DNA from: Patescibacteria group bacterium
GTDB lineage: Bacteria > Patescibacteriota > Minisyncoccia > Phycocordibacterales > Phycocordibacteraceae
Direction of reading: 5' to 3'
NCBI GenBank assembly: GCA_018826905.1
Contig: JAHJYC010000003.1
Coordinates: 36,963-100,962 of the forward strand
Length of the DNA: 64,000 bases
Below, one piece after another: positions 6,547-49,331 of the stretch. Positions within the stretch are counted from its first letter, which is position 1. Every line of letters begins with the position of its first letter. Below the pieces are notes generated by a model that had not been told where the DNA came from, searched no databases, and worked only from the letters and a program-made list of their open reading frames with translations. A program made the position numbers and the translations under genes.

Positions 6547-7926
6547 TTACGCTTCGTCTCTTGCTTCCTCAGCGTCAGACACGCTTTCATTGCCATCATC
6601 TGTCTGTGTTGTCTCCTCTTCCATAGACAGGGTGTTGTTCGCAGGAGCTTCTTCTGTAACTACAGACTCAGATTCTGTTGGGTCAATACCAGCTGCAACA
6701 GCAGGGTCCATATCCTCAGCTGCTTCAGTAGCGGCAACAGATTCGTCAGACGCACCCTCAACTGCAGCGGCATTTCCTGAGTCAGCAACGCTTTCGCCAC
6801 CTACTGCTGCGATATCAATGTTCCAGCCAGTAAGCTTTGCGGCGAGTCGTACATTTTGTCCGCCTCGTCCGATAGCAAGTGACTGCTGATCTTCAGATAC
6901 GGTCACTGTTGCACGGTGTCCTTCCTCGTCTATCTCAACATCAAGCACTGTTGCAGGGGAGAGAGATTCTTTAATAAAGGCTGCCTGGTCTTCAGACCAC
7001 TCAATAATATCAATGCGCTCTCCGCCAAGGGCGGCCATAACGGTAGACACACGAACTCCACGCTGTCCGACGAGTGATCCAACCGGATCAACATGTGGAT
7101 CAAGAGAAGCAATCGCAATCTTTGTACGGCTTCCTGGTTCGCGCGCGAGACCCTTTACTTCAATTGCGCCAGAAGCTAGTTCAGGCACTTCCATCTCAAA
7201 CAGGCGAGTGAGGAAGCGAGGGTGACTGCGTGAAAGACGCAGGTACACACCGCGGAATCCCTCGTCTACTGCATAGAGGTAAGCACTGATGCGCTCTCCG
7301 GTGCGGTAGCGCTCTCCTGGGATCTGCTCCTCGTAGGGAATGATTCCTGTCGCGCGTCCAAGGTCCACAAAGATAGCGCCGCGCTCAGCGCGCTGCACAA
7401 TACCGGTAACGATTTCACCCTTCTTGTGACCGAACTCGTCCAGGATAGAAAGCTTCTCAGCTTCGCGGATCTTTTGAATAACCACCTGCTTTGCTGTCTG
7501 TGCTGCAATACGTCCAAAATCATCCTGTGGCTCAAGAGGGAAGATAAGTTCTTGTCCCACTTCAGCGTCGCGCTTAATACGCTTCGCGTCTTCAATAAGG
7601 ATGTGCTTCTCAGCATCATAACGAGGAAGTTCTCCCTCAGCGACAACCTCCTCTCGTTCGTAGTGAGGGTGTGCTTCAGGAAGCTCCTCTTCTCCCTCTT
7701 CAGGGAAACGCACCATCGTGTCGTCCACAATAGTTTTTACTTGTTCAAATGACACAGTTCCTGTGTCCATATCAAGCATGCCGCGTACTACCTGTCCGCG
7801 CTTCCCGTACTCCTTCTTGTAGGCAGTAGCCATGGCCTGCTCAATAGCATCCACCATAGTTTCCTTGGTGATGCCACGCTCTTCAAATTCTCCGAGCACT
7901 GAGTTGATTGTTTTTAGATCCAACAT
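6547..7926 (-). CDS. nusA: transcription termination/antitermination factor NusA with acidic C-terminal extension
   Basis: 459 aa; N-terminal NusA domain, S1, two KH domains (SLAIGRGGQNVRLAAKLTGWNIDI); D/E-rich tail. Confidence 0.9.
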   Translation of the reverse strand: MLDLKTINSVLGEFEERGITKETMVDAIEQAMATAYKKEYGKRGQVVRGMLDMDTGTVSFEQVKTIVDDTMVRFPEEGEEELPEAHPHYEREEVVAEGELPRYDAEKHILIEDAKRIKRDAEVGQELIFPLEPQDDFGRIAAQTAKQVVIQKIREAEKLSILDEFGHKKGEIVTGIVQRAERGAIFVDLGRATGIIPYEEQIPGERYRTGERISAYLYAVDEGFRGVYLRLSRSHPRFLTRLFEMEVPELASGAIEVKGLAREPGSRTKIAIASLDPHVDPVGSLVGQRGVRVSTVMAALGGERIDIIEWSEDQAAFIKESLSPATVLDVEIDEEGHRATVTVSEDQQSLAIGRGGQNVRLAAKLTGWNIDIAAVGGESVADSGNAAAVEGASDESVAATEAAEDMDPAVAAGIDPTESESVVTEEAPANNTLSMEEETTQTDDGNESVSDAEEARDEA

Positions 7927-8197
7927 ACTTCTCTGTATTTAGTTGTTCGCACTATAGATGATTGTAATCGCACAGGGCTTTCTTAAAAAGAAATGCCCGC
8001 GGGAGCGGACAATTCAGATAGGCAAAAGGTACCATTTTAGGAGGGAAGGGTCAATAAGGGACTTGACACATATATTAATATATGTACTACTGTGTCCAGG
8101 TCCGCGTATATGGAACCTAGTTTCCTTACAACTCACACCAGTGACTTGTAGAGCATTGTTCTTTGCAGTCACATCGCCTCAAGGAGGGGCAAAACAC

Positions 8198-8614
8198 ATG
8201 CGTACCACCGGTTTCAACACCTGGATGCAGAACAAGAAGGTCCAGACGGCCGCCGTGGCCGCCTGTAGCCTGATCCTCGGCGCCGTCGGCCATGCGATCA
8301 TCACGCCCGAGCCGGTCATCGCCGCCCCGCTGCCCGTCGAGTTCCGCGTCGGTCCCGGCGAGAGTCCGGCCAAATACGTCGGGAACATGACGGCCATCGC
8401 CCTGGGCGATGCCTGCAAGCTCCCGATCTATCTGGGTCAACAGCAGATCCGCAACCATGAGATCACGGCGCAGGAGGCCCGTGGCCACATGGCCGTTACT
8501 CGGAACTTCACCGACATCGTCCAGATCACGGTCGGCGTCCATCCGGACGCCAGGTTCCAGATCGTCGGCTCGACCATCACCTGCCCCGACGGCACCGTGG
8601 TCGGCGAAGGCTGA
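8198..8614 (+). CDS. high-GC (~65-70%, GC3 ~90%) small secreted protein, 138 aa, two Cys; no recognisable family
   Basis: ATG at 8198 preceded by aaggagggg SD; signal peptide MRTTGFNTWMQNKKVQTAAVAACSLILGAVGHA; sharp GC jump relative to flanks; own terminator. Confidence 0.6.
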   Translation: MRTTGFNTWMQNKKVQTAAVAACSLILGAVGHAIITPEPVIAAPLPVEFRVGPGESPAKYVGNMTAIALGDACKLPIYLGQQQIRNHEITAQEARGHMAVTRNFTDIVQITVGVHPDARFQIVGSTITCPDGTVVGEG

Positions 8615-8640
8615 TCTGCGACTGACTGCTACAAGAAAAA

Positions 8641-8682
8641 GCGCCCCGCAACTCCGGTTGTGTGGGCGTTTTCCTTTTTCAT
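8641..8682 (+). terminator. rho-independent terminator of the high-GC cassette
   Basis: gcgccccgcaactccggttgtgtgggcgttttcctttttc. Confidence 0.65.
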
Positions 8683-10490: not shown

Positions 10491-10570
10491 CTAGCCAAGC
10501 TACATTTTCATGCTATTGTGCGCTGGTCGCACGAAAGAAGCACCGGGCTTCTCGCGACAGGGAGGTACCA

Positions 10571-10927
10571 ATGAGTAAGGTGTTTGTTGGAATCCTGGTG
10601 TCCGCGTTTTTGGGCGTCATCGTCTATTCGCTCGGCGCCCACTACTTCGGCACCGCGATCATGCCGGGCGGTGAACAGCCGAGTCTGTTCGCGCCGACGC
10701 TGCAGTGGCTGGTCGCCGCGGTGGGAGCGGTCGCCATCTACATGGCGGCCGACGTGGTCGCTTCGGGCGTGCTCGCCATCATCCTGTTCGTCGTCGCCCT
10801 CGTTGTGGGCGGGACGCTGCAGGTCGGCTGGGAGTCCTGGCTCTGGGCTGCTGTCGCTGCCGCCATCGGCGCCACGCTCGGCAACCTGTTCGTTCCGGTT
10901 CAGCGCGGGACCGTGAGCGCCCAGTAG
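10571..10927 (+). CDS. high-GC small polytopic membrane protein, 118 aa (3-4 TM), unknown family
   Basis: gggaggtacc SD 5 nt before ATG; GC3 nearly all G/C; hydrophobic segments VGILVSAFLGVIVYSL, LVAAVGAVAIYMAADVVASGVLAIILFVVALVVGG, LWAAVAAAIGATLGNLFV. Confidence 0.55.
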   Translation: MSKVFVGILVSAFLGVIVYSLGAHYFGTAIMPGGEQPSLFAPTLQWLVAAVGAVAIYMAADVVASGVLAIILFVVALVVGGTLQVGWESWLWAAVAAAIGATLGNLFVPVQRGTVSAQ

Positions 10928-10971
10928 TCGCGCTTGCACTGCCGCATTTGTGACGGGACGCGGCGCATATC

Positions 10972-11013
10972 GAGCTGAGACTCTTCTTCGGAACGTCTCA
11001 GCTCTTTTCTTTT
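10972..11013 (+). terminator. rho-independent terminator of the cassette
   Basis: gagctgagactcttcttcggaacgtctcagctc hairpin + ttttctttt. Confidence 0.65.
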
Positions 11014-29009: not shown

Positions 29010-30041
29010 GTGTATAATTATCCGAATGGGAACACTCGGTCCGAAACGAGCACCAAAGACATGATAACGAATGATCTGTACTCCAAAATTCTCCTAGAAC
29101 CCGCCGAAAGGGGAGGCGATGAATTGTTTATTGTCAGCGGATATGCGTCTGCCACATTTGCAAGACGTCACTTAAAAGATTTGTCTGAACGCAAAGAAGA
29201 CACAAAAATAAACCTAATTATTGGGATGCCAAAGAATACGGTGGACCATAATGCCTATTTACAACTGCACACTGAATTTGGCAACAGGTTTCGTGGCTAC
29301 TACCTGAAGTCAACGCCACCAGTCCATAGTAAAGTGTTCACTTGGTTTAATTCAGGCAAACCTCAAGAGGCATACAGCGGTTCTGCCAACTATAGTCAGT
29401 ATGGCTTTTTTGAGGACAAGCAAAGAAACCAGATGGTTAGTGACAACTCTATAGAAATAAAAAATTTCTTTGATGATCTGCTGAGTTCATCCATATTTAT
29501 GCCGCATGCTGAGATAGATAACTCAGCAGTCTTCTACAGGGTACAGAAAGTTCATGGAAGTGTACCGGCAGGAGGCGTAGAGTGGATAGAGTTAGGGAAA
29601 ACAGTGAGAATTAGTTTCCTAGATAAAAAGGGTATGTTGCCTCCAGTTTCAGGACTGAACTGGGGACAGAGGAAAGAGAAGAGAATAAACAAAGGAACGG
29701 GTGAAGTAAAATATGTGCTACGAGAAAAGAACCAAGCGTACTTGAGTTTAAAGGGTGATGTTAGAGAAGAAGGTTTCCTTCCTAAGATGGCATATAACTT
29801 CACTTTACTAACCGATGACAACGCTTCCTTTGATTGCGTAGTTGCACAGGAGGGCAGGAAAGCAATTCATTCTACAAATGACAACAGTGAACTAGGTAGG
29901 TATTTTCGTAAAAGACTAGGGCTTGAGCCAGGAGCTTTTGTTACAGTTGAAGACTTGGAGCGATACGGAAGAACCGACTATACTTTGTCTAAAATTGACG
30001 ATGAGAACTTCCTATTGGATTTTTCCGTAAAGCCAAATTAA
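29010..30041 (+). CDS. Type II restriction endonuclease, phospholipase-D (HKD) superfamily, BfiI/NgoFVII-like, with C-terminal DNA-binding region
   Basis: DELFIVSGYAS... and HSKVFTWFNS...GSANYS correspond to BfiI TLYLISGFSN... / HAKLYG...SSGNFT (HxK...GSxN); more likely start is ATG 29060 (MITNDLY) downstream of a TGTATAAT -10 at 29011-29018; 3' end overlaps the convergent MTase by 4 nt. Confidence 0.65.
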   Translation: MYNYPNGNTRSETSTKDMITNDLYSKILLEPAERGGDELFIVSGYASATFARRHLKDLSERKEDTKINLIIGMPKNTVDHNAYLQLHTEFGNRFRGYYLKSTPPVHSKVFTWFNSGKPQEAYSGSANYSQYGFFEDKQRNQMVSDNSIEIKNFFDDLLSSSIFMPHAEIDNSAVFYRVQKVHGSVPAGGVEWIELGKTVRISFLDKKGMLPPVSGLNWGQRKEKRINKGTGEVKYVLREKNQAYLSLKGDVREEGFLPKMAYNFTLLTDDNASFDCVVAQEGRKAIHSTNDNSELGRYFRKRLGLEPGAFVTVEDLERYGRTDYTLSKIDDENFLLDFSVKPN

Positions 30042-31135
30042 AAAATATCGTTTTTAATTTCTTCAATAGAGAATTTAGAATCTACCGACGGGTAAGGGAT
30101 CCCTGCAAAAGTCTTAAGAACAGCTTCTACAATTATTTTTGCACCAAGCGGAGGTACCGCCATGCCTATTTGCTTTCTTACACTCTCCTTTGGGCCTTTA
30201 AAAATAAAATTGTCAGGGAAGCTCTGTATTCGGGCCCTTTCGCGGTTTGTAAGTGCACGTGGTTCTATCCAGTGATACACATGTGTGCCACCACCTCCGC
30301 TTCCTGTGATTGTGTAAGATGGCTTATTGGGATCAAGACGCTTATAAATTTGGCTCATCTTAGCTCCTTTGACATTAAGTCGAAGATGTTTAGGGAGACC
30401 TTCATACCACGCGTTTTCGCCGGCAGGAATATGCAAAAGACGTTCAATTACGTGAGTAGCTTGCTTAGTGTGTTCATTATTGGACACTTCTTTGGGTATT
30501 GGCGGCTTCTCAAGGGCCATCTTTGCTGTGACAGGTTTATTCTTTGTGGTTGGAGCAGGAATTCTGAACTCAAGTCCTTGGTCTTTTCTTATCCCAATAA
30601 TTACAACGCGGTGCCTTTGTTGAGGAACGCCATATTCCTCGAATTTATATAGATGAGGGTATAGATTGTATCCCTTACCTGCAGCCTGAAGATCGGTAAG
30701 AATTTTCTTAAAGGCCTCACCTCCGTTTGCGCTCTGTAGACCGCCAACATTTTCAGCAAAAAACCATAGAGGGTTATGTTCATTTATTGCTTTTACACCA
30801 TATGTATAAAGGGGACCATATTTGCCGTTAAATCCTTTCTGCTTGCCAACTAAACTGAAATCGTTGCATGGAAAACCAAAAGCCAAGGCATCAAATTTAG
30901 GGATTTTTTTGAAATCAACTTTTTCAACAGGGCCACAGAAGACTCTTTTCTGGTTACCATGATGTATGTTTAACGCGTATGTTTGGCAGGTGTCCTCATC
31001 AATATCATTGGCCCAAACTGGAACTACCTTATACACAGCATTGCCTTTTTTCACCTCTGCCATGGAGGCGCCAAGACTTAGACCGCCTGGGCCACAGAAC
31101 AGCTCGGCAAAACGGAATTCTACCTTCTTTTTCAT
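30038..31135 (-). CDS. DNA (cytosine-5)-methyltransferase
   Basis: Motif I FCGPGG, motif IV PCNDFS, motif VI ENV, C-terminal motifs; start taken at MKKKVEF. Confidence 0.9.
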   Translation of the reverse strand: MKKKVEFRFAELFCGPGGLSLGASMAEVKKGNAVYKVVPVWANDIDEDTCQTYALNIHHGNQKRVFCGPVEKVDFKKIPKFDALAFGFPCNDFSLVGKQKGFNGKYGPLYTYGVKAINEHNPLWFFAENVGGLQSANGGEAFKKILTDLQAAGKGYNLYPHLYKFEEYGVPQQRHRVVIIGIRKDQGLEFRIPAPTTKNKPVTAKMALEKPPIPKEVSNNEHTKQATHVIERLLHIPAGENAWYEGLPKHLRLNVKGAKMSQIYKRLDPNKPSYTITGSGGGGTHVYHWIEPRALTNRERARIQSFPDNFIFKGPKESVRKQIGMAVPPLGAKIIVEAVLKTFAGIPYPSVDSKFSIEEIKNDIF

Positions 31136-31185
31136 AATAAGAATCCTAGCACTATAGTAATAATTTTGCAGCAACGAAATTTAAG

Positions 31186-31213
31186 TACCCTAACTTATAA
31201 GCTAGGGTACTGC
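31186..31213. promoter_or_regulatory. 14-bp near-perfect inverted repeat upstream of the methyltransferase gene (possible operator)
   Basis: agtaccctaacttataagctagggtact, about 50 nt upstream of the M-gene ATG. Confidence 0.3.
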
Positions 31214-31351
31214 CTCAGTTGCCCGGCACTAGCGATTGATAGGATTCACTCCATGATAGGCGCTATACCCCATGTGTAGGAAATGGTTGCATTTCCAGAG
31301 CAGCTCTTATATAGTGCTTTTAGCTCCCACGGGGGAGTTTTCATTTGCTGC

Positions 31352-31762
31352 ATGGCTACAATAAATCAACTCACCAAGAAAGCTCGTAAGAATACAACCA
31401 AGAAAACTAAGGTTGTGGCTCTTGGTCGTGGATTTAATGCACTTAAGAACCGTCCTACGTTTTACCCTGCTCCGTTTAAGCGCGGTGTATGTGTAAAAGT
31501 AACGACAAAAACCCCTCGTAAGCCTAACTCTGCTATTCGTAAGATCGCTCGTGTGCGCCTTACAAACGGTATGGAAGTAACGGCATATATCCCTGGAGAG
31601 GGACACAACCTCCAAGAGCACTCAGTAGTTATGCTTCGCGGTGGACGCGTGAAGGACATTGGTGTTCAGTACACTATCGTTCGCGGACGCCTTGATACTG
31701 CTGGTCTTGATAAGCGCCGCCGTGGTCGCTCTAAGTACGGAGCTAAAAAGCCTAAGGCATAG
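31352..31762 (+). CDS. rpsL: 30S ribosomal protein S12
   Basis: [13 protein letters not shown]...; start moved to the internal ATG. Confidence 0.9.
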
Positions 31763-31774
31763 TTTTAAAACATC

Positions 31775-32239
31775 ATGCGACACCCAGTAAAGAACAAGTA
31801 CCCACGCCGTCCGGACCTCGTATACCAGTCCGAAGCTATTTCACGTTTCATTAACACTGTTATGTGGGACGGAAAGAAAGATACAGCCACTAAGCTCGTA
31901 TACGACGCACTAGACCTCATCAAGGCACAGGAGATGGACCCCCTAGAGACATTTGAGACTGCTATCCGCAACGTCTCTCCGCTCATGGAAGTTCGTTCAC
32001 GACGCGTCGGAGGTGCAAACTACCAGGTTCCTCGTGAAGTACCTCAGCAGCGCCGCGTATCTCTCGCATACCGCTGGCTCATTAACGCAGCGCGCTCTCA
32101 GAAGGGAAAGCCAATGGCACAGAAGCTTGCAAATGAGATTCTCCTTGCCGTTAAGAACGAGGGAACTGCAATTAAAAAGAAGGACGACATGCACCGCATG
32201 GCAGATGCCAACAAGGCCTTCGCACACTTCGCCTGGTAA
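31775..32239 (+). CDS. rpsG: 30S ribosomal protein S7
   Basis: 154 aa, S7 family. Confidence 0.9.
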   Translation: MRHPVKNKYPRRPDLVYQSEAISRFINTVMWDGKKDTATKLVYDALDLIKAQEMDPLETFETAIRNVSPLMEVRSRRVGGANYQVPREVPQQRRVSLAYRWLINAARSQKGKPMAQKLANEILLAVKNEGTAIKKKDDMHRMADANKAFAHFAW

Positions 32240-32251
32240 CAAACTAACAAG

Positions 32252-32277
32252 AGACCGCCCAACGAGGCGGTTTTTTG
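32252..32277 (+). terminator. rho-independent terminator after rpsG
   Basis: gaccgcccaacgaggcggttttttg. Confidence 0.7.
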
Positions 32278-32292
32278 ATGCCCTATGTACTA

Positions 32293-32321
32293 TTGACAAA
32301 TATGGTGTATTGTGCTATGTT
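32293..32321 (+). promoter_or_regulatory. sigma70-like promoter (TTGACA-N17-TATGTT) driving the first gene of the two-gene high-GC cassette
   Basis: tattgacaaatatggtgtattgtgctatgttgg. Confidence 0.45.
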
Positions 32322-32380
32322 GGTAAGGAAGTGCTTGCTGTTTCCATTCGTTCAACAAAGTCCTGAGGAGGGACACGACA

Positions 32381-32632
32381 ATGACCAAGACACAGACCAA
32401 AGAAGAGGTCTTCAACTTCATGAACCGTCTGGGCCTGATCATCGCCATCACGGGTGTTCTGGTGATGGTGCCCGGCGCCTATCTGACCCTCCACGTCGCC
32501 TTCTTCGGCGTCGCGGACCCGGCCGTCACCGGCGCCCTCATCTTCGGTTCCTACCTGGGTGGCGGCGCTACGCTGGCCGTCGGGCTGGCCCTCAAGGGCA
32601 TCGCCTGGGTCACCCGCTTCGGCTGGCACTGA
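32381..32632 (+). CDS. high-GC small 2-TM membrane protein (83 aa)
   Basis: gaggaggg SD; MTKTQTKEEVFNFMNRLGLIIAITGVLVMVPGAYL...; GC3 biased. Confidence 0.5.
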   Translation: MTKTQTKEEVFNFMNRLGLIIAITGVLVMVPGAYLTLHVAFFGVADPAVTGALIFGSYLGGGATLAVGLALKGIAWVTRFGWH

Positions 32633-32770
32633 CCACGTGTCTTTCTTCAAAGACACAGAACTCGGAAGAGCTCTGGACATCCTCGGCGCCGTGATCATCA
32701 TCGCCGTGGTGTCGCACCCTCTGTTCCAGGGATGGTTGGTTTCAGTCGTGAGCTGAACGAACACAAAAGG

Positions 32771-32815
32771 GCTCGGACCGCAGCGATATGCGTGGTCCGG
32801 GCTCTTTCTCTTTAC
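32771..32815 (+). terminator. internal terminator between the two cassette genes
   Basis: gctcggaccgcagcgatatgcgtggtccgggc 9-bp stem + tctttctcttt. Confidence 0.5.
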
Positions 32816-32889
32816 ATATATGGGTTCTGGGAGTACTTTTTCAGTTCAACTGAAGTCCTTTCAGTTGGAAGTTCAAGGAGGGAAGAGAG

Positions 32890-33099
32890 ATGTCGCTTAA
32901 GAAGATGCTTGGTGTTCCGGTGCTGATTTCGGCCGGGCTCGCGCTCATCATCGCTGCCACCAATACGATCGCACATGCAGGTGGCGCGAAGACGCCCGAA
33001 GACCAGCTGGTGATCGCCTTCGGTCTCGGCGTCGGGATCTGTATCCTTTTCGGTGCTGGTTTTCTGGCCGCCTGGCCGAAGAATCCTCAGCAGCCCTGA
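32890..33099 (+). CDS. high-GC small 2-TM membrane / secreted protein (69 aa)
   Basis: aaggagggaagagag SD; MSLKKMLGVPVLISAGLALIIAATNTIAHAGG... Confidence 0.5.
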   Translation: MSLKKMLGVPVLISAGLALIIAATNTIAHAGGAKTPEDQLVIAFGLGVGICILFGAGFLAAWPKNPQQP

Positions 33100-33117
33100 C
33101 CAACACAGAACATTCAA

Positions 33118-33150
33118 GCCCGAGCGCAAAGCGCCCGGGCCTTTTTCTTG
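33118..33150 (+). terminator. rho-independent terminator of the cassette
   Basis: gcccgagcgcaaagcgcccgggcctttttctt. Confidence 0.65.
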
Positions 33151-33218
33151 CCTTTTCCTGCTCCTAAACGTATCTTATAGCTAACGCCCTGGCGGCTTTT
33201 ATTTTATTTATACCTACT

Positions 33219-35366
33219 ATGAATCGCGATTATCCCCTAGAGAAAGTGCGCAACTTCGGAATTGTGGCCCACGTGGACGCAGGAAAGACGACTACGTCTG
33301 AACGCGTGCTCTACTACACAGGTTCCCAGCACAAAATTGGTGAGGTGCACGAAGGAGAGACCACCACTGACTGGATGGAACAAGAGCGTGAGCGCGGAAT
33401 CACTATTACCGCAGCGGCTATTACCTGTTTCTGGACTCGTACAAATGAACCAGACAAGAAGGACCTTGCTAAGAAGTACCGTTTCAATGTGATTGATACG
33501 CCAGGACACATTGACTTCACTGCTGAGGTAAAGCGCTCTATGCGCGTGCTTGATGGAGCTATTGTGGTGTTTGACGGCGTGGCTGGTGTTGAGCCACAGT
33601 CTGAGACTAACTGGCGCTACGCTGACGAAGCGGGAGTACCTCGTGTTTGTTTCATCAACAAGCTAGACCGCACCGGAGCGTCTTTTGAAGACTCATACAA
33701 GTCTATTCTTGATCGTCTTTCAAAGAAGGCTGTGCGTGCTCAGATCCCTATGGGAGCTGAGGGAGACTTTGAGGGAGTAGTGGACCTTCTTTCTATGAAG
33801 GCCTTCACGTTCTCTGGAAACATGGGAGAGGAGGTTACTGAAGGAGAGGTGCCAGAGAAGTACGTAGAGGAGGCAAAGAAGTATCGCGCTGAGTTTATTG
33901 AGCGCATCGTTGAGCACGACGAAGAGCAAATGAATGCCTTTTTTGAAGGAAACGAGCCATCTCTAGAAGATCTTAAGAAAACGCTTCGCAAGGCAGTTAT
34001 CGCAAACGAGATTTTCCCTGTGTACACCGGGTCTGCCCTTAAGAACAAGGGAGTACAGCTCGTACTTGATGCAGTTGTTGATTATCTTCCAAGCCCGCTA
34101 GACCTTCCTCCTGTTAAGGGATTGAACCCAAAGACAGGTGAAGAGATTGAACGAAAGGCAGATGACGCTGAACCGTTTACAGCGCTTGCGTTCAAGCTTC
34201 AGACTGACCCATTCGTGGGAGCACTCACGTTCTTCCGTGTGTATGCGGGAACAGTAGCTGCAGGCTCCTATGTATACAACTCAAGCACAGGAACAAAGGA
34301 GCGTGTTGGACGTATTGTACGTCTGCAGGCAGACAAGCGTGAGGAAGTAGATAAGGTGTTCACCGGAGAGATTGCCGCTATGGTGGGTCTTAAGGACACA
34401 AAGACGTCACACACTCTCTGCGATGAAGCAAATCCAATTGTGCTTGAAGAGATTAAGTTCCCTGAGCCAGTGGTATCCCTTCGTATTGAGCCAAAGACAA
34501 AGGCGGACCAGGAGAAGATGGGTATGGCGCTTCGCAAGCTTGCTGATGAAGATCCTACCTTCAAGGTAACGACTGATGACGAGACTGCTGAGACAATTAT
34601 GGCAGGTATGGGTGAGCTGCATCTTGAGATTCTCGTTGATCGTATGAAGCGCGAGTTTAATGTGGAAGCGAATGTCGGTAAGCCACAGGTGGCATACCGC
34701 GAAACCATCCTTGGTGCTGCTGACGTGGACAACAAGTACATCAAGCAGACGGGAGGTAAGGGTCAGTACGGACACGTGAAGATTAAGATCAAGCATCTTG
34801 AGCCAGTTGATCCTGAAGCAAAGGTTGCGAAGAACGTTACTCGTGAAGATCACTTTGAGTTCATCAACAACATCAAGGGAGGTGTTATTCCTCAGGAGTA
34901 CATCAACCCTATTGAAAAGGGTATTCGCGAAGCAATGAATCGCGGAGTGCTTGCGGGGTATCAGATGGTAGATGTGTCTGTTGATCTCTATGACGGATCA
35001 TTCCACGAAGTGGACTCGTCTGAAATCGCTTTCAAGATTGCCGCTTCTCAGGCATTCCAGGAAGCAGCACAGAAAGCAAAGCCAGTTATCCTTGAGCCAA
35101 TTATGAATGTTGAAGTGGTTATCCCTGAGCAGTTCATGGGTGACATCACGGGCTCACTTTCAGGAAAGCGCGGGGCTATTGAGGGTATGGAGGATCGTGG
35201 AATGAATAAAGCTGTACACGCGAAGGTGCCGCTTTCAGAAATGTTCGGATATACCACAACCCTTCGCTCAATGACTGAAGGACGTGGATCTATGACTATG
35301 GAGTTTGATCACTACGAAGTAGTGCCAAGCAACGTAGCGCAGGATATTATCGCGAGCCGCAAGTAA
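33219..35366 (+). CDS. fusA: elongation factor G
   Basis: 715 aa; AHVDAGKTT, DTPGHIDF, NKLD G-motifs; domains II-V. Confidence 0.95.
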   Translation: MNRDYPLEKVRNFGIVAHVDAGKTTTSERVLYYTGSQHKIGEVHEGETTTDWMEQERERGITITAAAITCFWTRTNEPDKKDLAKKYRFNVIDTPGHIDFTAEVKRSMRVLDGAIVVFDGVAGVEPQSETNWRYADEAGVPRVCFINKLDRTGASFEDSYKSILDRLSKKAVRAQIPMGAEGDFEGVVDLLSMKAFTFSGNMGEEVTEGEVPEKYVEEAKKYRAEFIERIVEHDEEQMNAFFEGNEPSLEDLKKTLRKAVIANEIFPVYTGSALKNKGVQLVLDAVVDYLPSPLDLPPVKGLNPKTGEEIERKADDAEPFTALAFKLQTDPFVGALTFFRVYAGTVAAGSYVYNSSTGTKERVGRIVRLQADKREEVDKVFTGEIAAMVGLKDTKTSHTLCDEANPIVLEEIKFPEPVVSLRIEPKTKADQEKMGMALRKLADEDPTFKVTTDDETAETIMAGMGELHLEILVDRMKREFNVEANVGKPQVAYRETILGAADVDNKYIKQTGGKGQYGHVKIKIKHLEPVDPEAKVAKNVTREDHFEFINNIKGGVIPQEYINPIEKGIREAMNRGVLAGYQMVDVSVDLYDGSFHEVDSSEIAFKIAASQAFQEAAQKAKPVILEPIMNVEVVIPEQFMGDITGSLSGKRGAIEGMEDRGMNKAVHAKVPLSEMFGYTTTLRSMTEGRGSMTMEFDHYEVVPSNVAQDIIASRK

Positions 35367-35385
35367 AAAGATAAAGGTTTGTACA

Positions 35386-35415
35386 CAAAACCGCCTCAGT
35401 AAGGGGCGGTTTTGT
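35386..35415 (+). terminator. rho-independent terminator after fusA
   Basis: aaaaccgcctcagtaaggggcggttttg. Confidence 0.65.
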
Positions 35416-36058
35416 GCTACGGTGTACCTATATGACCAAACGAACTAAAGCTTTCCTTGCTGTTTTTGTAGTAGTTGCCCTTGGTGCGTACGGATATTTG
35501 TATTGGTGGGCAAATACTCCAGAGCACGGAGTCTTTGATTCTATCCCTATCGTGCGTGAGGTGTCGGACTCTCTTTCAAAGGGAGTAGTGCGTACTCCAG
35601 TTGTTGAGGAAGAGGCAGTAGTAGAAGAAGAGGAGAGTGTTCCTGTTGATACACAGACCTATAAGACATATGAGAACACTACGCAGAAGTTCAGCTTGGA
35701 CTATCCGGACACTTGGATTCCAACCGTTACGAACATAGACGGTGTTATGACGCTCTGTATCACTGATACTGAAGCAACGGGCCCTTGCATGCTTACCGTT
35801 GAGAGCGAAGCAGAGGGTGTGAATGTGAGCGAGGAGAAGACTTATATTGCGCTTAAGGCTGAGTACCGCGCTGGCAAGCTTACTGAGCTTGAGCGCGCTG
35901 TTGGCGGAGAGATGGGACGATTGCTCCGTATTTCAGGAGAACCAACAGTGAGTCGTGTGGTGGTATTCAGTCACGAAGGACGTGTCTACACTGTTTCAGC
36001 CCTTGAAGGACAGGAAACTGTATTTGATCGGGCAACTGAGTCCTTTAGATTCCAGTAA
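35414..36058 (+). CDS. hypothetical membrane-anchored protein (likely start ATG 35432, MTKRTKAFLAVF...)
   Basis: Single N-terminal TM, acidic linker EEEAVVEEEE, beta-rich C-domain; unusual position between fusA and tuf. Confidence 0.5.
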   Translation: MLRCTYMTKRTKAFLAVFVVVALGAYGYLYWWANTPEHGVFDSIPIVREVSDSLSKGVVRTPVVEEEAVVEEEESVPVDTQTYKTYENTTQKFSLDYPDTWIPTVTNIDGVMTLCITDTEATGPCMLTVESEAEGVNVSEEKTYIALKAEYRAGKLTELERAVGGEMGRLLRISGEPTVSRVVVFSHEGRVYTVSALEGQETVFDRATESFRFQ

Positions 36059-36314
36059 ACCCAACATTTCGGAACAGGCAGGCAGCAGTGCCTGCCTGTT
36101 CCCATTTTAGGCAGATATTTTCTTGACCTTTGTTACTCGCTCCGGTACCTTAAGAAGTAACGCGAAATACGGCGCTCTTTTCAATATTCCTCTCCATACG
36201 GAGCCTGGGATGGCTGAAAGACGTTGCGCGGGTTATGCCCAACGCCTTGGTCGCCTGGTTTCAGGCAGGCGCGGCAGCATGTTATTCAACTAGCTACCAG
36301 TAATTTTAGAACGT

Positions 36315-37517
36315 ATGGCAGATGTATTTGATCGCAGCAAGCCGCACATGAACGTGGGTACTATTGGCCACGTTGACCACGGCAAGACGACCCTAACGGC
36401 GTCAATCCTTAATGTGCTTAACCTAAACGCTGACAAGGGCTACAAGGCTCGTGCAGAGAAGGTTGAGAACATCGACAACGCTCCTGAAGAGAAGGCGCGT
36501 GGTATTACCATTGCTCTTCACCACTCGGAGTACGAGAGCCCAAACCGTCACTACGCACACATTGACGCTCCAGGCCACGCCGACTACATCAAGAACATGA
36601 TCACAGGAGCCGCTCAGATGGACGGCGCTGTGCTCGTAGTCGCCGCGACCGACGGCGCGATGCCGCAGACCCGCGAGCACATTCTCCTAGCTAAGCAGGT
36701 TGGTGTGCCTCGTCTCATCATCTTCCTCAACAAGGTTGATATGGTTGATGATGCAGACATGCTAGACCTCGTGGAGGAAGAGATCCGTGAACTTCTTACG
36801 AAGCAGGGATACGACGGTGCAGAGACTCCAATTATCCGCGGTTCTGGACTCAAGGCTCTTGAGGCAACCAGCGCAGATGATGAGTACGCACTCAAAGTGA
36901 AGGAGCTTGTTGACACTATGGACAGCTACTTCCCGCAGCCAGAGCGCGAGCTTGATAAGCCATTCCTTATGCCAATTGAGGACATCTTCTCAATTGAAGG
37001 ACGTGGAACCGTTATCACTGGTCGCATTGAGCGCGGTGTGGTTAAGGTTGGTGAGGAAATTGAGATCGTTGGTCTCAAGGACACCGTTAAGACCACCGTT
37101 ACCGGTATTGAGATGTTCAACAAGCAGCTCCAGGAGGGACAGGCTGGCGACAACGCTGGTATCCTTCTTCGCGGAACTAAGAAGGAGGACGTACATCGCG
37201 GACAGGTTCTTGCGAAGGTAGGTTCTGTAAAGCCGCACACTGAGTTTGAGGCTGAGGTATACGTTCTTTCTAAGGACGAGGGTGGACGTCATACTCCATT
37301 CTTCTCAGGCTACAAGCCTCAGTTCTATGTTCGTACAACGGACGTAACTGGAGAGGTAACCCTTCCAGACGGAAAGGAGATGGTTATGCCGGGTGACACT
37401 GTTACCTTCAAGGTAAAGCTCACTGCACCAATCGCACTTGAGGACAACTTCCGTTTCTCAGTACGTGAGGGAGGACGCACTGTAGGTGCTGGCGTGGTCA
37501 CGAAGATCATCGCGTAA
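36315..37517 (+). CDS. tuf: elongation factor Tu
   Basis: [21 protein letters not shown]; 400 aa. Confidence 0.95.
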
Positions 37518-48335: not shown

Positions 48336-48354
48336 AGAAGAGGATGTTGCAAAA

Positions 48355-48377
48355 GAGCCCGGAAACGGGCTCTTTTG
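48355..48377 (+). terminator. rho-independent terminator after rplE
   Basis: gagcccggaaacgggctcttttg. Confidence 0.6.
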
Positions 48378-48402
48378 ACATATAGAAACAGGGTTGTAGT
48401 AT
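48375..48402 (+). promoter_or_regulatory. sigma70-like promoter TTGACA-N16-TAGTAT driving the high-GC lipoprotein cassette
   Basis: ttgacatatagaaacagggttgtagtat. Confidence 0.4.
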
Positions 48403-48452
48403 CAAAATACTAAGTTTGGTAGTTGTATCAGGCTTTTAAGAAGGAGGATGAA

Positions 48453-48944
48453 GTGAGAAAGATGTTCTTTGCGGGGGCTCTTGTCCTTGCACTTTCCGCC
48501 TGCGACAGGAACACGGACAACAATCTGCGGTACGAAGTTTCCGTGGACTACCGTGAGCCTGTGGGCGCCGTGGTCAGGGAGCTCGGCCTTAACACGGAGG
48601 AAGTGCCTGTGTACGAGGTCATGAACCGCAGCAGGCATGGAGTCGGCGAAGAGCTTCGCTGGATGCGCGTGGTTCGGCATCGGGAGCTGAAGGACACCTA
48701 CAGCCCCAAAAACGGGTTTCACCCGGCCGATACGCGCGAAATGCTGGCGTTCTACGCCACGCACCCCCAGGCAGTGCCTTTCAAAGGGCTCTGCGCTCCG
48801 GGCGAGCAACTGCCGCTTGGGGAAGGGGTGATCGGCGTGCCGGTTATCACGCGCGCAGGCAATCTCGGCATTTCCGCCCATGGCTGCAAGAAGCCGGGCC
48901 GTCGCGTGCTCGTGGTGCGAGATTTCGGCCGCACGCAGCCCTGA
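48453..48944 (+). CDS. high-GC lipoprotein (~163 aa), unknown family
   Basis: aaggagg SD 5 nt before GTG 48453 (alternative ATG 48462); lipobox LVLALSAC; GC3 nearly all G/C; own terminator. Confidence 0.55.
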   Translation: MRKMFFAGALVLALSACDRNTDNNLRYEVSVDYREPVGAVVRELGLNTEEVPVYEVMNRSRHGVGEELRWMRVVRHRELKDTYSPKNGFHPADTREMLAFYATHPQAVPFKGLCAPGEQLPLGEGVIGVPVITRAGNLGISAHGCKKPGRRVLVVRDFGRTQP

Positions 48945-48950
48945 ATATAC

Positions 48951-48990
48951 GGTCCCCATGTCTTCATTGGCGCGGGGACCATTTTCTTTG
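48951..48990 (+). terminator. terminator of the lipoprotein cassette
   Basis: ggtccccatgtcttcattggcgcggggacc + attttcttt. Confidence 0.55.
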
Positions 48991-49061
48991 GGGTCAATGT
49001 TTGACAGCCTATATCCTTACTGATAGATTACATGAACGGCTCCCCGGAGCTATTTTTTCTT

Positions 49062-49331
49062 ATGGCCAAAGCCTCACAAATCGCCCGCAACAACAAGAGA
49101 ATTAAACTTGTTGAGAAGTACGCAGAAAAGCGTGCTGCTCTTAAGGCTGCTGGTGATTGGGAAGGGCTTCAGAAGCTCCCTAAGAATTCATCTCCTGTTC
49201 GTGTAAAGAATCGCTGTGCAGTTACTGGTCGTCAGCGTGGATTTATGCGCCACTTCGGTCTTTCTCGTATCACCTTCCGCGAGCTCGCTCGTGAGGGAAA
49301 GATTCCGGGAGTTAAGAAAGCCTCTTGGTAA
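49062..49331 (+). CDS. rpsN: 30S ribosomal protein S14
   Basis: [13 protein letters not shown]...; start at the internal ATG; possible TTGACA-N17-TAGATT promoter at 49001-49029. Confidence 0.85.

Follow-up and report, generated by a model that had tools for sequence, protein, structure and literature searches.

A 64,000-nucleotide stretch of DNA from a Patescibacteria group bacterium (NCBI GenBank assembly GCA_018826905.1, contig JAHJYC010000003.1, positions 36,963 to 100,962 of the forward strand), referred to here as the window, carries a gap of 979 nt in its str gene cluster, between rpsG (ribosomal protein S7) and fusA (elongation factor G, EF-G). From 5' to 3' the gap holds the rpsG terminator, a promoter (P1), a 5' untranslated region (UTR), an open reading frame (ORF) for an 83-aa membrane protein (ORF1), a junction hairpin, a 39-aa ORF (ORF3), a terminator (T2), a candidate second promoter (P2), a 69-aa ORF (ORF2), a third terminator (T3) and the promoter and leader of fusA (Table 1). 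The insert that lies after the rpsG terminator and ahead of the native fusA promoter, about 860 nt at roughly 32281-33147, is likely, taken as a whole, to be a lineage-specific accessory islet; it belongs to a known kind, that of small accessory genes at intergenic sites prone to recombination, and no new mechanism is involved. An earlier sequence-only reading of this DNA had described a self-contained, compositionally deviant unit of two genes in a gap of about 980 nt, with a strong near-consensus promoter of its own, two hydrophobic ORFs of 83 and 69 aa led by Shine-Dalgarno (SD) sequences and flanking terminators. These features were borne out, the number of genes was not: there are three, ORF3 being the third. 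The cassette is not an assembly artefact since it occurs on at least 11 independent contigs (NCBI, JGI, ENA and Logan).

Table 1. Features of the rpsG-fusA region; positions are those of the window, and regulatory elements are predictions
Feature	Position	Strand	Details
rpsL	31352-31762	+	upstream of rpsG
rpsG (ribosomal protein S7), left conserved flank	31775-32239	+	154-aa ORF; Pfam Ribosomal_S7 on the identical gene in contig L001
Intrinsic terminator of rpsL-rpsG	32248-32280	+	GC stem 32254-32271 and U run
Promoter P1	32293-32321	+	TTGACA-N17-TATGTT, TG extended -10; 10/12 consensus positions
5' UTR of unit 1	32322-32380	+	59 nt, read from sequence; holds the SD of ORF1
ORF1, 83-aa membrane protein	32381-32632	+	SD GAGGAGGG at 32365-32372; stop 32630-32632
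Junction hairpin	32637-32656	+	8 bp; starts 4 nt past the ORF1 stop; holds the ORF3 start codon
ORF3, 39-aa single-pass membrane peptide	32637-32756	+	GTG start, 4 nt beyond the ORF1 stop
Terminator T2 of unit 1	32766-32807	+	about 18 pairs; U-rich tail to about 32815
Candidate promoter P2	32811-32839	+	TTTACA-N17-TACTTT; 8/12, hypothetical
Recombination tract, ORF2 5' end	32868-32982	+	115 nt; 11 single-nucleotide differences and a 2-nt indel
ORF2, 69-aa membrane or secreted peptide	32890-33099	+	SD AAGGAGGG at 32875-32882
Terminator T3 of ORF2	33118-33149	+	stem 33118-33140 and U tail; abuts the fusA -35 box
fusA promoter	33148-33176	+	TTGCCT (33148-33153)-N17-TATCTT (33171-33176); 8/12
fusA 5' leader	33177-33218	+	contains ..AACGCCCTGGCGGCTTTTATTTTATTTAT..; conserved across the clade; without obvious SD
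fusA (EF-G), right conserved flank	33219-35366	+	715-aa ORF; EF-G Pfam domains on the identical gene

The cassette has been found at this locus in only three species-level lineages, namely the window species, the UBA6241 lineage (loci L006-L009 and L012, from JGI, ENA, NCBI and Logan) and Logan contig L011. The flanks of the latter two are 89-96% identical to the window at the nucleotide level (about 91% across the locus). Purifying selection on ORF2 is evident from these comparisons, with a ratio of non-synonymous to synonymous divergence (dN/dS) of 0.11-0.26 on 10-43 changes (up to 22 synonymous and 21 non-synonymous). ORF3, likewise under purifying selection, encodes a peptide that is 100% identical in the three lineages. 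The UBA6241 lineage differs from the window by four internal nucleotide changes in ORF3, of which 4 are synonymous and 0 non-synonymous (a chance of about 0.005 by our own calculation, given about 26% synonymous sites), and the start codon is GTG in the window and ATG in both other lineages. ORF3 is very probably a real gene, and the sequence-only reading, which had listed a possible GTG-initiated hydrophobic peptide at 32636-32755, was right in this respect and one base off in its coordinates. The GC content of ORF1 by codon position (0.61/0.45/0.87, i.e., GC3 > GC1 > GC2, where GC3 is the GC content of third positions) follows the pattern of a coding frame.

The three products are hydrophobic, with grand average of hydropathy (GRAVY) values of 0.87 for ORF1, 0.83 for ORF2 and 1.15 for ORF3. 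ORF1 has two transmembrane (TM) segments, and the positive-inside rule predicts a helical hairpin with both termini inside the cell; an AlphaFold2 model likewise gave a helical hairpin (helices 3-42 and 47-80, pLDDT 80), for which Foldseek returned generic helical hairpins, none at E <= 0.001. ORF3 has a single TM segment. ORF2 has two hydrophobic segments, a signal-peptide-like N-terminus and one TM segment, separated by a short polar loop. The N-terminal arrangement MSLKK, hydrophobic core, TIAHA|GG is visible and conserved, and from the sequence a cleaved signal peptide and an uncleaved two-TM hairpin are equally possible; a mature peptide would have about 38 aa and a net charge of about 0.

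P1, the TTGACA-N17-TATGTT that the sequence-only reading had called a promoter, was the top-scoring site of a promoter scan of 31000-36500. It is one of six sites with at least 10/12 matches in the window, both strands included, and it is invariant across the three lineages; its hexamers, a spacing within the 16-18 nt range and its conserved position make it a predicted promoter of the sigma-70 type. Promoter and UTR together show 3 differences in 88 nt from the relatives, and the fold of the UTR is not significant with respect to shuffled sequences. P2, which lies under the threshold of the promoter scan, has an invariant -35 box and a -10 box that reads TATTTT in the UBA6241 lineage; the motif TTKACAHATAT occurs in the window only at 8063, 32293 and 32811 (0.12 expected). 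The rpsG terminator (-18.1 kcal/mol, z -5.4, 0 of 200 shuffles equally stable), T2 (-30 kcal/mol, z -5.5) and T3 (-16.9 kcal/mol, z -2.6, invariant except for one loop base) all combine a stable GC-rich hairpin with a U run and are predicted to be intrinsic terminators. T3 is where the sequence-only reading placed its final terminator. T2 had been described as a terminator with a 9-bp stem at 32771-32815, which holds for the terminator-like hairpin and not for its size. Across the three lineages 94% of the cells of T2 are paired and two pairs show compensatory double changes (CC..GG to UU..AA), evidence which is supportive but, with three sequences only, not conclusive; its tail is weaker in the UBA6241 lineage. 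The hairpin after ORF1 (-10 kcal/mol, z -1.8), formerly taken for an internal terminator, does exist, but the lack of a U tail and the presence of the ORF3 start codon within it mean that it is not a terminator. It is instead a probable translational-coupling element.

These signals suggest how the cassette may be expressed. In a first unit, transcription from P1 would yield, by way of a strong SD, abundant ORF1, then ORF3, and would end at T2. ORF3 is probably translated by termination-reinitiation since its start lies 4 nt past the ORF1 stop, without an SD of its own and inside a small hairpin, which the terminating ribosome would open. In a second unit, the candidate P2 would drive ORF2, also led by a strong SD, up to T3; ORF2 would be either transcribed separately from P2 or reached by read-through of T2. 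On this evidence the cassette probably comprises two insulated transcription units. Its seat between a terminator and a promoter would mean that it neither receives read-through from rpsG nor starves fusA, so that gain, loss or swapping of its genes would come at little cost.

The right-hand border is set by the promoter and leader of fusA. The sequence-only reading had foreseen that fusA would need its own downstream promoter, and TTGCCT-N17-TATCTT was found there; it was absent from the promoter-scan list, and its support comes from conservation and not from its match to the consensus. Of 22 relatives inspected, nearly all have the form TTGCYT-N17-TATCTT equally far from fusA, and it is kept even in a 152-nt gap (L016) and an 86-nt spacer (L036), which points to a native, clade-conserved promoter. 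The leader of the relatives reads ..GTAGNTAACGCC...GGCGGCTTTTATTTTATTTAT.. followed by ATG, and this U-rich leader (AACGCC..GGCGGCTTTTATTTTATTTAT) is present in nearly all the relatives inspected (L013-L036) regardless of gap length. A second terminator-like hairpin had been proposed at 33183-33205; the segment folds at only -3.5 kcal/mol, 167 of 200 shuffles do as well, and it is in fact the conserved fusA leader. An Rfam search of 31000-36500 gave nothing relevant and assigned the leader to no family. The promoter and leader could be a translation enhancer or a site for the regulation of EF-G synthesis.

The gap is variable across the clade. The rpsG loci of 80 species-representative genomes labelled Paceibacterota, Kaiserbacteria, Parcubacteria or Patescibacteria were compared (S7 proteins 61-99% identical to that of the window), and slot statistics were drawn from 68 species after exclusion of the cassette lineages. 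Gap lengths have a median of 480 nt and extend from 39 up to 3560 nt; 41 gaps have at least 400 nt and only 10 of the 68 have 100 nt or less, which does not agree with the sequence-only view that the gap is normally under 100 nt. Nor does the cassette split an intact str operon, as had been supposed. A GC hairpin with a T run directly follows rpsG in most close relatives inspected, and together with the conserved fusA promoter this indicates that the operon was already split and that the cassette sits in a pre-existing gap between terminator and promoter. The 152-nt gap of L016, with a terminator and a promoter only, looks like an empty site. The same flanks thus enclose different content or none, and ORF1, ORF2 and ORF3 are limited to a shallow clade. 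The cargo is unrelated between species: NlpC/P60 and Peptidase_M15_4 proteins occur three times each and KGG stress proteins twice, whereas GcpE, PBP, DUF1993, PIN, SocA_Panacea, GIY-YIG, PaaX-like, APH, nucleotidyl transferase and LamG pilin-like proteins occur once each, alongside several unannotated small TM proteins. The slots of L013, L014, L017 and L027 carry genes for NlpC/P60 (with SH3) and/or Peptidase_M15_4 cell-wall hydrolases, and in L013 and L027 the hydrolases come after a small TM protein, an arrangement that resembles a lysis or wall-remodelling module. None of the small ORFs in the slot of the 68 relatives is homologous to ORF1, ORF2 or ORF3; a likeness ('LDILG') between ORF3 and the TM protein of L013 was rejected as not significant.

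The three proteins are orphans. None of them is present in relatives whose S7 is 88-92% identical. Eight public contigs encode exactly the ORF1 protein, including a 376-kb contig of GCA_018826595.1 ('Patescibacteria group bacterium'), all with the neighbourhood restriction-modification pair, rpsL, rpsG, cassette, fusA, a 208-aa gene, tuf and rpsJ. The sequence-only reading had named homologues at this locus in Candidate Phyla Radiation (CPR) genomes as evidence that would count against it; the two further species-level lineages are such cases. A word-indexed homology search matched ORF1 to itself only, and an exhaustive HMMER search against 1.84 billion representatives returned itself plus one spurious match (a 456-aa soluble repeat protein). 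ORF2 has two homologues among 5.8 billion clusters, with 97 and 75% identity, both at the same locus. Pfam, PHROGs, NCBIfam and PADLOC scans of the three proteins gave sub-threshold noise only (0 families from the PADLOC defence models), and scans of metagenomes with peptide patterns and with exact DNA, scans of viral contigs, and tblastn and blastn searches of phage and plasmid collections gave no match. Within the window no paralogue of the cassette or of its proteins was found, and a similarity of 25 nt (80%) between ORF1 and ORF3 does not exceed chance and is out of frame. Gene calls for the cassette differ between public annotations, and ORF3 is called by no gene caller. In sister contigs the loss of 2 nt upstream of ORF2 joins it to a preceding frame and results in a 121-aa call (L001 6352-6717, equivalent to window 32732-33099), whereas in the UBA6241 lineage an antisense shadow ORF of 107 or 121 aa is called in place of ORF1 (L006-L009 5427-5792). 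In the window a 149-aa ORF is open antisense to ORF1 and is called as a gene by some pipelines; its GC by codon position (0.68/0.49/0.60) lacks the coding signature and it reads as a low-complexity shadow.

The composition of the cassette is uneven. GC is 0.64 in ORF1, 0.55 in ORF3 and 0.60 in ORF2, compared to 0.43 in the promoter and 5' UTR of unit 1, 0.48 in the inter-unit spacer and 0.485 in the window, so the description of a high-GC unit holds for the ORFs and not for what lies between them. GC3 reaches 0.87 in ORF1, 0.70 in ORF3 and 0.69 in ORF2 (0.83 in the ORF2 allele of L011), outside the range of 0.35-0.57 shown by 12 native genes of the window, as would be expected of horizontally acquired genes; no homologue or donor was found outside the three lineages. 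From composition we infer that the ORFs came from a donor of higher GC, whereas the promoters and UTRs look native. The fetched loci of the relatives span 37-63% GC, which makes a CPR donor of higher GC as plausible as an unrelated one.

The divergence of the cassette is also uneven, and it forms a mosaic. With respect to both other lineages, synonymous divergence (dS) is 0.43-0.59 in rpsG and fusA (0.58-0.59 in fusA, with dN/dS of 0.03; 0.01 in rpsG), 0.16-0.21 in rpsL and 0.03-0.056 in ORF1; hence the synonymous divergence of the P1-ORF1-ORF3 block is about ten times below that of the flanking genes. Synonymous sites differ at 6 of 96 positions in ORF1 and ORF3 compared to 187 of 479 in rpsG and fusA (Fisher p = 1.5e-11). 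The block begins at the P1 -35 box and ends at the ORF3 stop (approximately 32300-32700); it shows 1-4 differences per 100 nt (9 in one bin with respect to L011), against about 10 in the flanks. ORF2 does not follow this pattern: its dS is 0.585 with respect to L011, equal to the flanks, and 0.13 with respect to UBA6241, and its protein is 75% identical to the L011 version whereas S7 and EF-G are 98-99% identical. Recombination was seen directly at the 5' end of ORF2. Over about 1.2 kb of aligned cassette and junctions, the window and five conspecific contigs differ nowhere but in the tract there; for four of the five, its 11 mismatches and one gap also make up every difference that BLAST counts over 2.8-4.3 kb. 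Its substitutions count as 7.5 synonymous and 2.5 non-synonymous, and within the tract the window allele is nearer to the UBA6241 allele. Hypervariation of ORF2 of the kind produced by diversity-generating retroelements was considered and rejected because the substitutions are mostly synonymous transitions and are not adenine-specific. According to the history that would best fit the mosaic, ORF2 was already resident when the three lineages diverged, the P1-ORF1-ORF3 module came in or was homogenised at a much later time, and homologous recombination through the conserved flanks moves alleles among the three sister species. Patescibacteria carry genes for competence and homologous recombination (PMC12455944).

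Several observations weigh against the islet reading or parts of it. The promoters, the terminators and the coupling are predictions from consensus or folding energy, and a single P1 transcript that runs through ORF2 is possible since P2 scores only 8/12 and the U tail of T2 is poor in one lineage. The dN/dS of ORF1, 0.7-0.85 from just 6-12 changes, is not enough in itself to demonstrate purifying selection. For none of the ORFs was a donor found, which leaves composition as the basis for a foreign origin, and a donor search via the 160-aa lipoprotein of a sister cassette (described below) returned only Patescibacteria homologues, at its own locus; moreover, the GC excess stops at the start codons and could instead be a gene-specific property of codons or mRNA. 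The ORF1 ratio near 1, together with the lack of homologues beyond three close lineages and the disagreement of the gene callers (antisense in L006-L009, fused in L001), could suggest that the ORFs are not genes but chance open frames in GC-rich non-coding or decaying sequence. This is extremely improbable, given consensus SDs at the right spacing before ORF1 and ORF2, the codon-position pattern of ORF1, the low dN/dS of ORF2, the synonymous changes of ORF3 and its start codon kept through GTG to ATG, three coherent TM products, and frames that are all intact in the three lineages although the flanks have reached a dS of about 0.5. A further point is that the mRNA of unit 1 folds better than its shuffles (z -4.6 on the + strand with T2 included, -2.6 on the - strand). 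The low divergence of P1-ORF1-ORF3 might then reflect constraint at the nucleotide level, from a structured or dual-function RNA or from information on the opposite strand, and not recent exchange; the block does match functional boundaries, its non-coding 5' UTR is conserved as much as its ORFs, and the 149-aa antisense ORF is open. Much of the z-score is supplied by the T2 hairpin, however, no Rfam family matches, the antisense frame lacks a coding signature, ORF1 still gains non-synonymous changes and the cassette is known to recombine, so we regard constraint as possible but rather unlikely.

The model implicit in the sequence-only reading was that a foreign mobile cassette, whether integron-like, left by a phage or the footprint of a transposon, had recently been inserted into a hitherto intact rpsL-rpsG-fusA operon of this strain. 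A GC3 far over that of native genes, a self-contained promoter and terminators, and several similar high-GC cassettes between conserved genes of the window would all suit it. The same site, however, is occupied in three species-level lineages with an ORF2 dS equal to that of the flanks, which largely refutes a recent insertion, and the operon is split, with a native fusA promoter, throughout the clade, even at gaps of 86-152 nt. Additionally, no meaningful flanking direct or inverted repeats, target duplication or attC-like site, no tRNA gene, and no recombinase or integrase ORF in 31000-36500 were found, nor any match in viral, phage or plasmid collections; this model is very improbable.

Regarding function, the Gly/Ala-rich TM helices with small-xxx-small spacing suggest oligomerisation in the membrane. 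Most of the protein families enriched in CPR are unannotated membrane proteins, proposed to act in the envelope or in cell-cell interaction (PMC6744442). As a tentative working guess, held with limited confidence, the products of the islet may be abundant small oligomerising proteins that act in envelope or host-contact physiology. The alternative of a killing or lysis module, with ORF1 as a class II holin or pinholin-like protein, ORF3 as a type I toxin or ORF2 as a Sec-exported bacteriocin-like peptide, and the other products as antiholin, antitoxin or immunity proteins, extends the earlier suggestion of a holin-like or toxin/immunity pair. Sizes and topologies fit it (an 83-aa two-TM hairpin, a 39-aa hydrophobic peptide and a 69-aa protein with a signal-like N-terminus): ORF1 is small with two TM segments, which is generic and not diagnostic of holins, and ORF3 falls within the size of type I toxins (below about 60 aa, hydrophobic). 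The predicted strong promotion and insulation of the genes, the fast evolution of ORF2 and its recombination tract, typical of genes of antagonism and immunity, and the fact that in other species this slot holds cell-wall hydrolases (beside a small TM protein in L013 and L027) and parts of toxin-antitoxin (TA) systems (PIN, SocA_Panacea) point in the same direction. On the other hand, there was no significant match to a holin, toxin, bacteriocin or immunity protein in Pfam, PHROGs, NCBIfam or PADLOC (no Pfam holin family at E <= 1, the sole sub-threshold hits being P9_TM and SdpI, each below its cut-off, and no PHROG for ORF1), no homologue in phage, viral or plasmid collections, and no fold match beyond generic helical hairpins. 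The cassette has no lysin or transporter gene, a consensus scan detected no antisense promoter of at least 9/12 within it, and the near-zero charge of the mature ORF2 peptide is unlike that of cationic bacteriocins. With no support from profile, homology or fold searches and no adjacent lysin, a killing or lysis role is unlikely.

At least three other GC-rich cassettes of the window share the layout of the islet: an upstream terminator, a TTGACA promoter, a strong SD, a GC3-rich secreted or membrane ORF and a terminator. The cassette at about 8063-8680 lies between nusA (- strand, ends at 7926) and pilB (8736), with promoter TTGACACATAT.., SD GGAGGGG, a 138-aa ORF from 8198 that has a signal-peptide-like N-terminus and a GC of about 0.66, and a terminator near 8640-8680; a longer 218-aa reading has no Pfam match. 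Another, at about 10508-11011, lies between pilB and pilC, has a GC of up to 0.70, an SD and a terminator at about 10973-11010, and encodes a 118-aa protein with about four TM segments (10571-10927, GC3 0.86) and no significant Pfam match. The cassette at 48340-49062 splits rplE from rpsN in the spc cluster and comprises the rplE terminator, TTGACA-N16-TAGTAT (48375), a 160-aa lipoprotein with lipobox LSAC (48462-48944, GC3 0.75) and a terminator; a second promoter, TTGACA-N17-TAGATT (49001), precedes rpsN, whose true start is probably 49062. Related Patescibacteria keep this lipoprotein cassette at its locus (73-90% aa identity), and it has no homologues in other places; it is as diverged as its flanks or more. 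Low divergence as a general trait of the high-GC cassettes was therefore rejected, and it appears to be specific to ORF1-ORF3. It is conceivable, though doubtful and decidedly speculative, that P1-ORF1-ORF3, and perhaps all the high-GC cassettes (about 8063-8680, 10508-11011, 32281-33147 and 48340-49020), form a distinct class of transformable accessory units that were captured from a high-GC partner or host, given native promoters, parked between the terminators and promoters of essential operons and carried in sweeps from one CPR species to another through natural competence and homologous recombination, with products that act at the interface between episymbiont and host.

Two further places deserve mention. 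A gene between fusA and tuf, at 35414-36058, encodes about 209-214 aa that include a TM anchor at the N-terminus and match no Pfam domain; it is present in all three lineages (208-215 aa), so the str cluster is interrupted a second time. The genes upstream of rpsL in UBA6241 and L011 differ from those of the window. Here a restriction-modification pair lies directly upstream of rpsL (29010-31174); the + strand encodes an NgoFVII-like endonuclease and the - strand a C5 DNA methyltransferase, both with a GC of 0.41-0.42, and the same position is taken by a 1001-aa LCAT-domain protein in UBA6241 and by an SDH_protease-domain protein in L011; it is a second variable site.

The str cluster of this CPR clade is not one operon, and the conserved gap before fusA, between terminator and promoter, serves accessory genes as a docking site. 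In annotation, real small genes are to be expected there, and a long spacer should not be put down to error. The CPR envelope proteins of unassigned role gain three orphan mini-membrane proteins, of which one lacks annotation in all public assemblies. The tenfold dS contrast between neighbouring modules of a 1-kb islet fits recombination between species in organisms presumed to be naturally competent; this contrast, the conserved fusA promoter and leader, the docking slot and the family of high-GC cassettes are all worth attention.

Comparison with known systems shows both likenesses and differences. ORF1 resembles class II holins and pinholins in its length of about 80 aa, two TM segments, Gly-rich helices and strong predicted promoter, but it lacks a profile match, an adjoining endolysin, a dual-start motif and a phage context, its neighbours being rpsG and fusA. 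ORF3 recalls the type I TA toxins Hok, Fst, TisB and Ldr, as a hydrophobic peptide of 39 aa with a single TM segment and a start codon in a hairpin; unlike them, it has no detected antisense promoter and no family match, and it is co-oriented with and apparently coupled to ORF1. ORF2 shares with Sec-dependent class II bacteriocins a signal-like N-terminus, an AxA motif, a product of about 38 aa and small membrane neighbours reminiscent of immunity proteins; its product, however, keeps a TM segment, is uncharged and shows no homology, and the putative immunity genes would lie in a separate upstream unit. The small, unannotated, CPR-encoded proteins with predicted TM helices are also comparable to the CPR-enriched membrane families (Meheust et al., 2019, PMC6744442), although those are spread widely across the CPR whereas ORF1-ORF3 are limited to three sister lineages and have a deviant codon composition. 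In Escherichia coli and most bacteria the canonical str operon is rpsL-rpsG-fusA-tufA. The gene order rpsL-rpsG-fusA-tuf is retained here, but this clade has a terminator after rpsG and a conserved promoter and leader for fusA, and extra genes lie between rpsG and fusA and between fusA and tuf. Compared to flexible genomic islets and integration hot spots, the slot is very small (0-3.5 kb), it lies in a terminator-promoter gap inside the str cluster of ribosomal-protein and elongation-factor genes, its cargo here is three orphan mini-proteins, and it is accompanied by no tRNA gene, integrase or repeats. As in such islets, conserved flanks (rpsG and fusA) bracket content that varies between species, and homologous recombination through these flanks could account for its turnover and allelic exchange.

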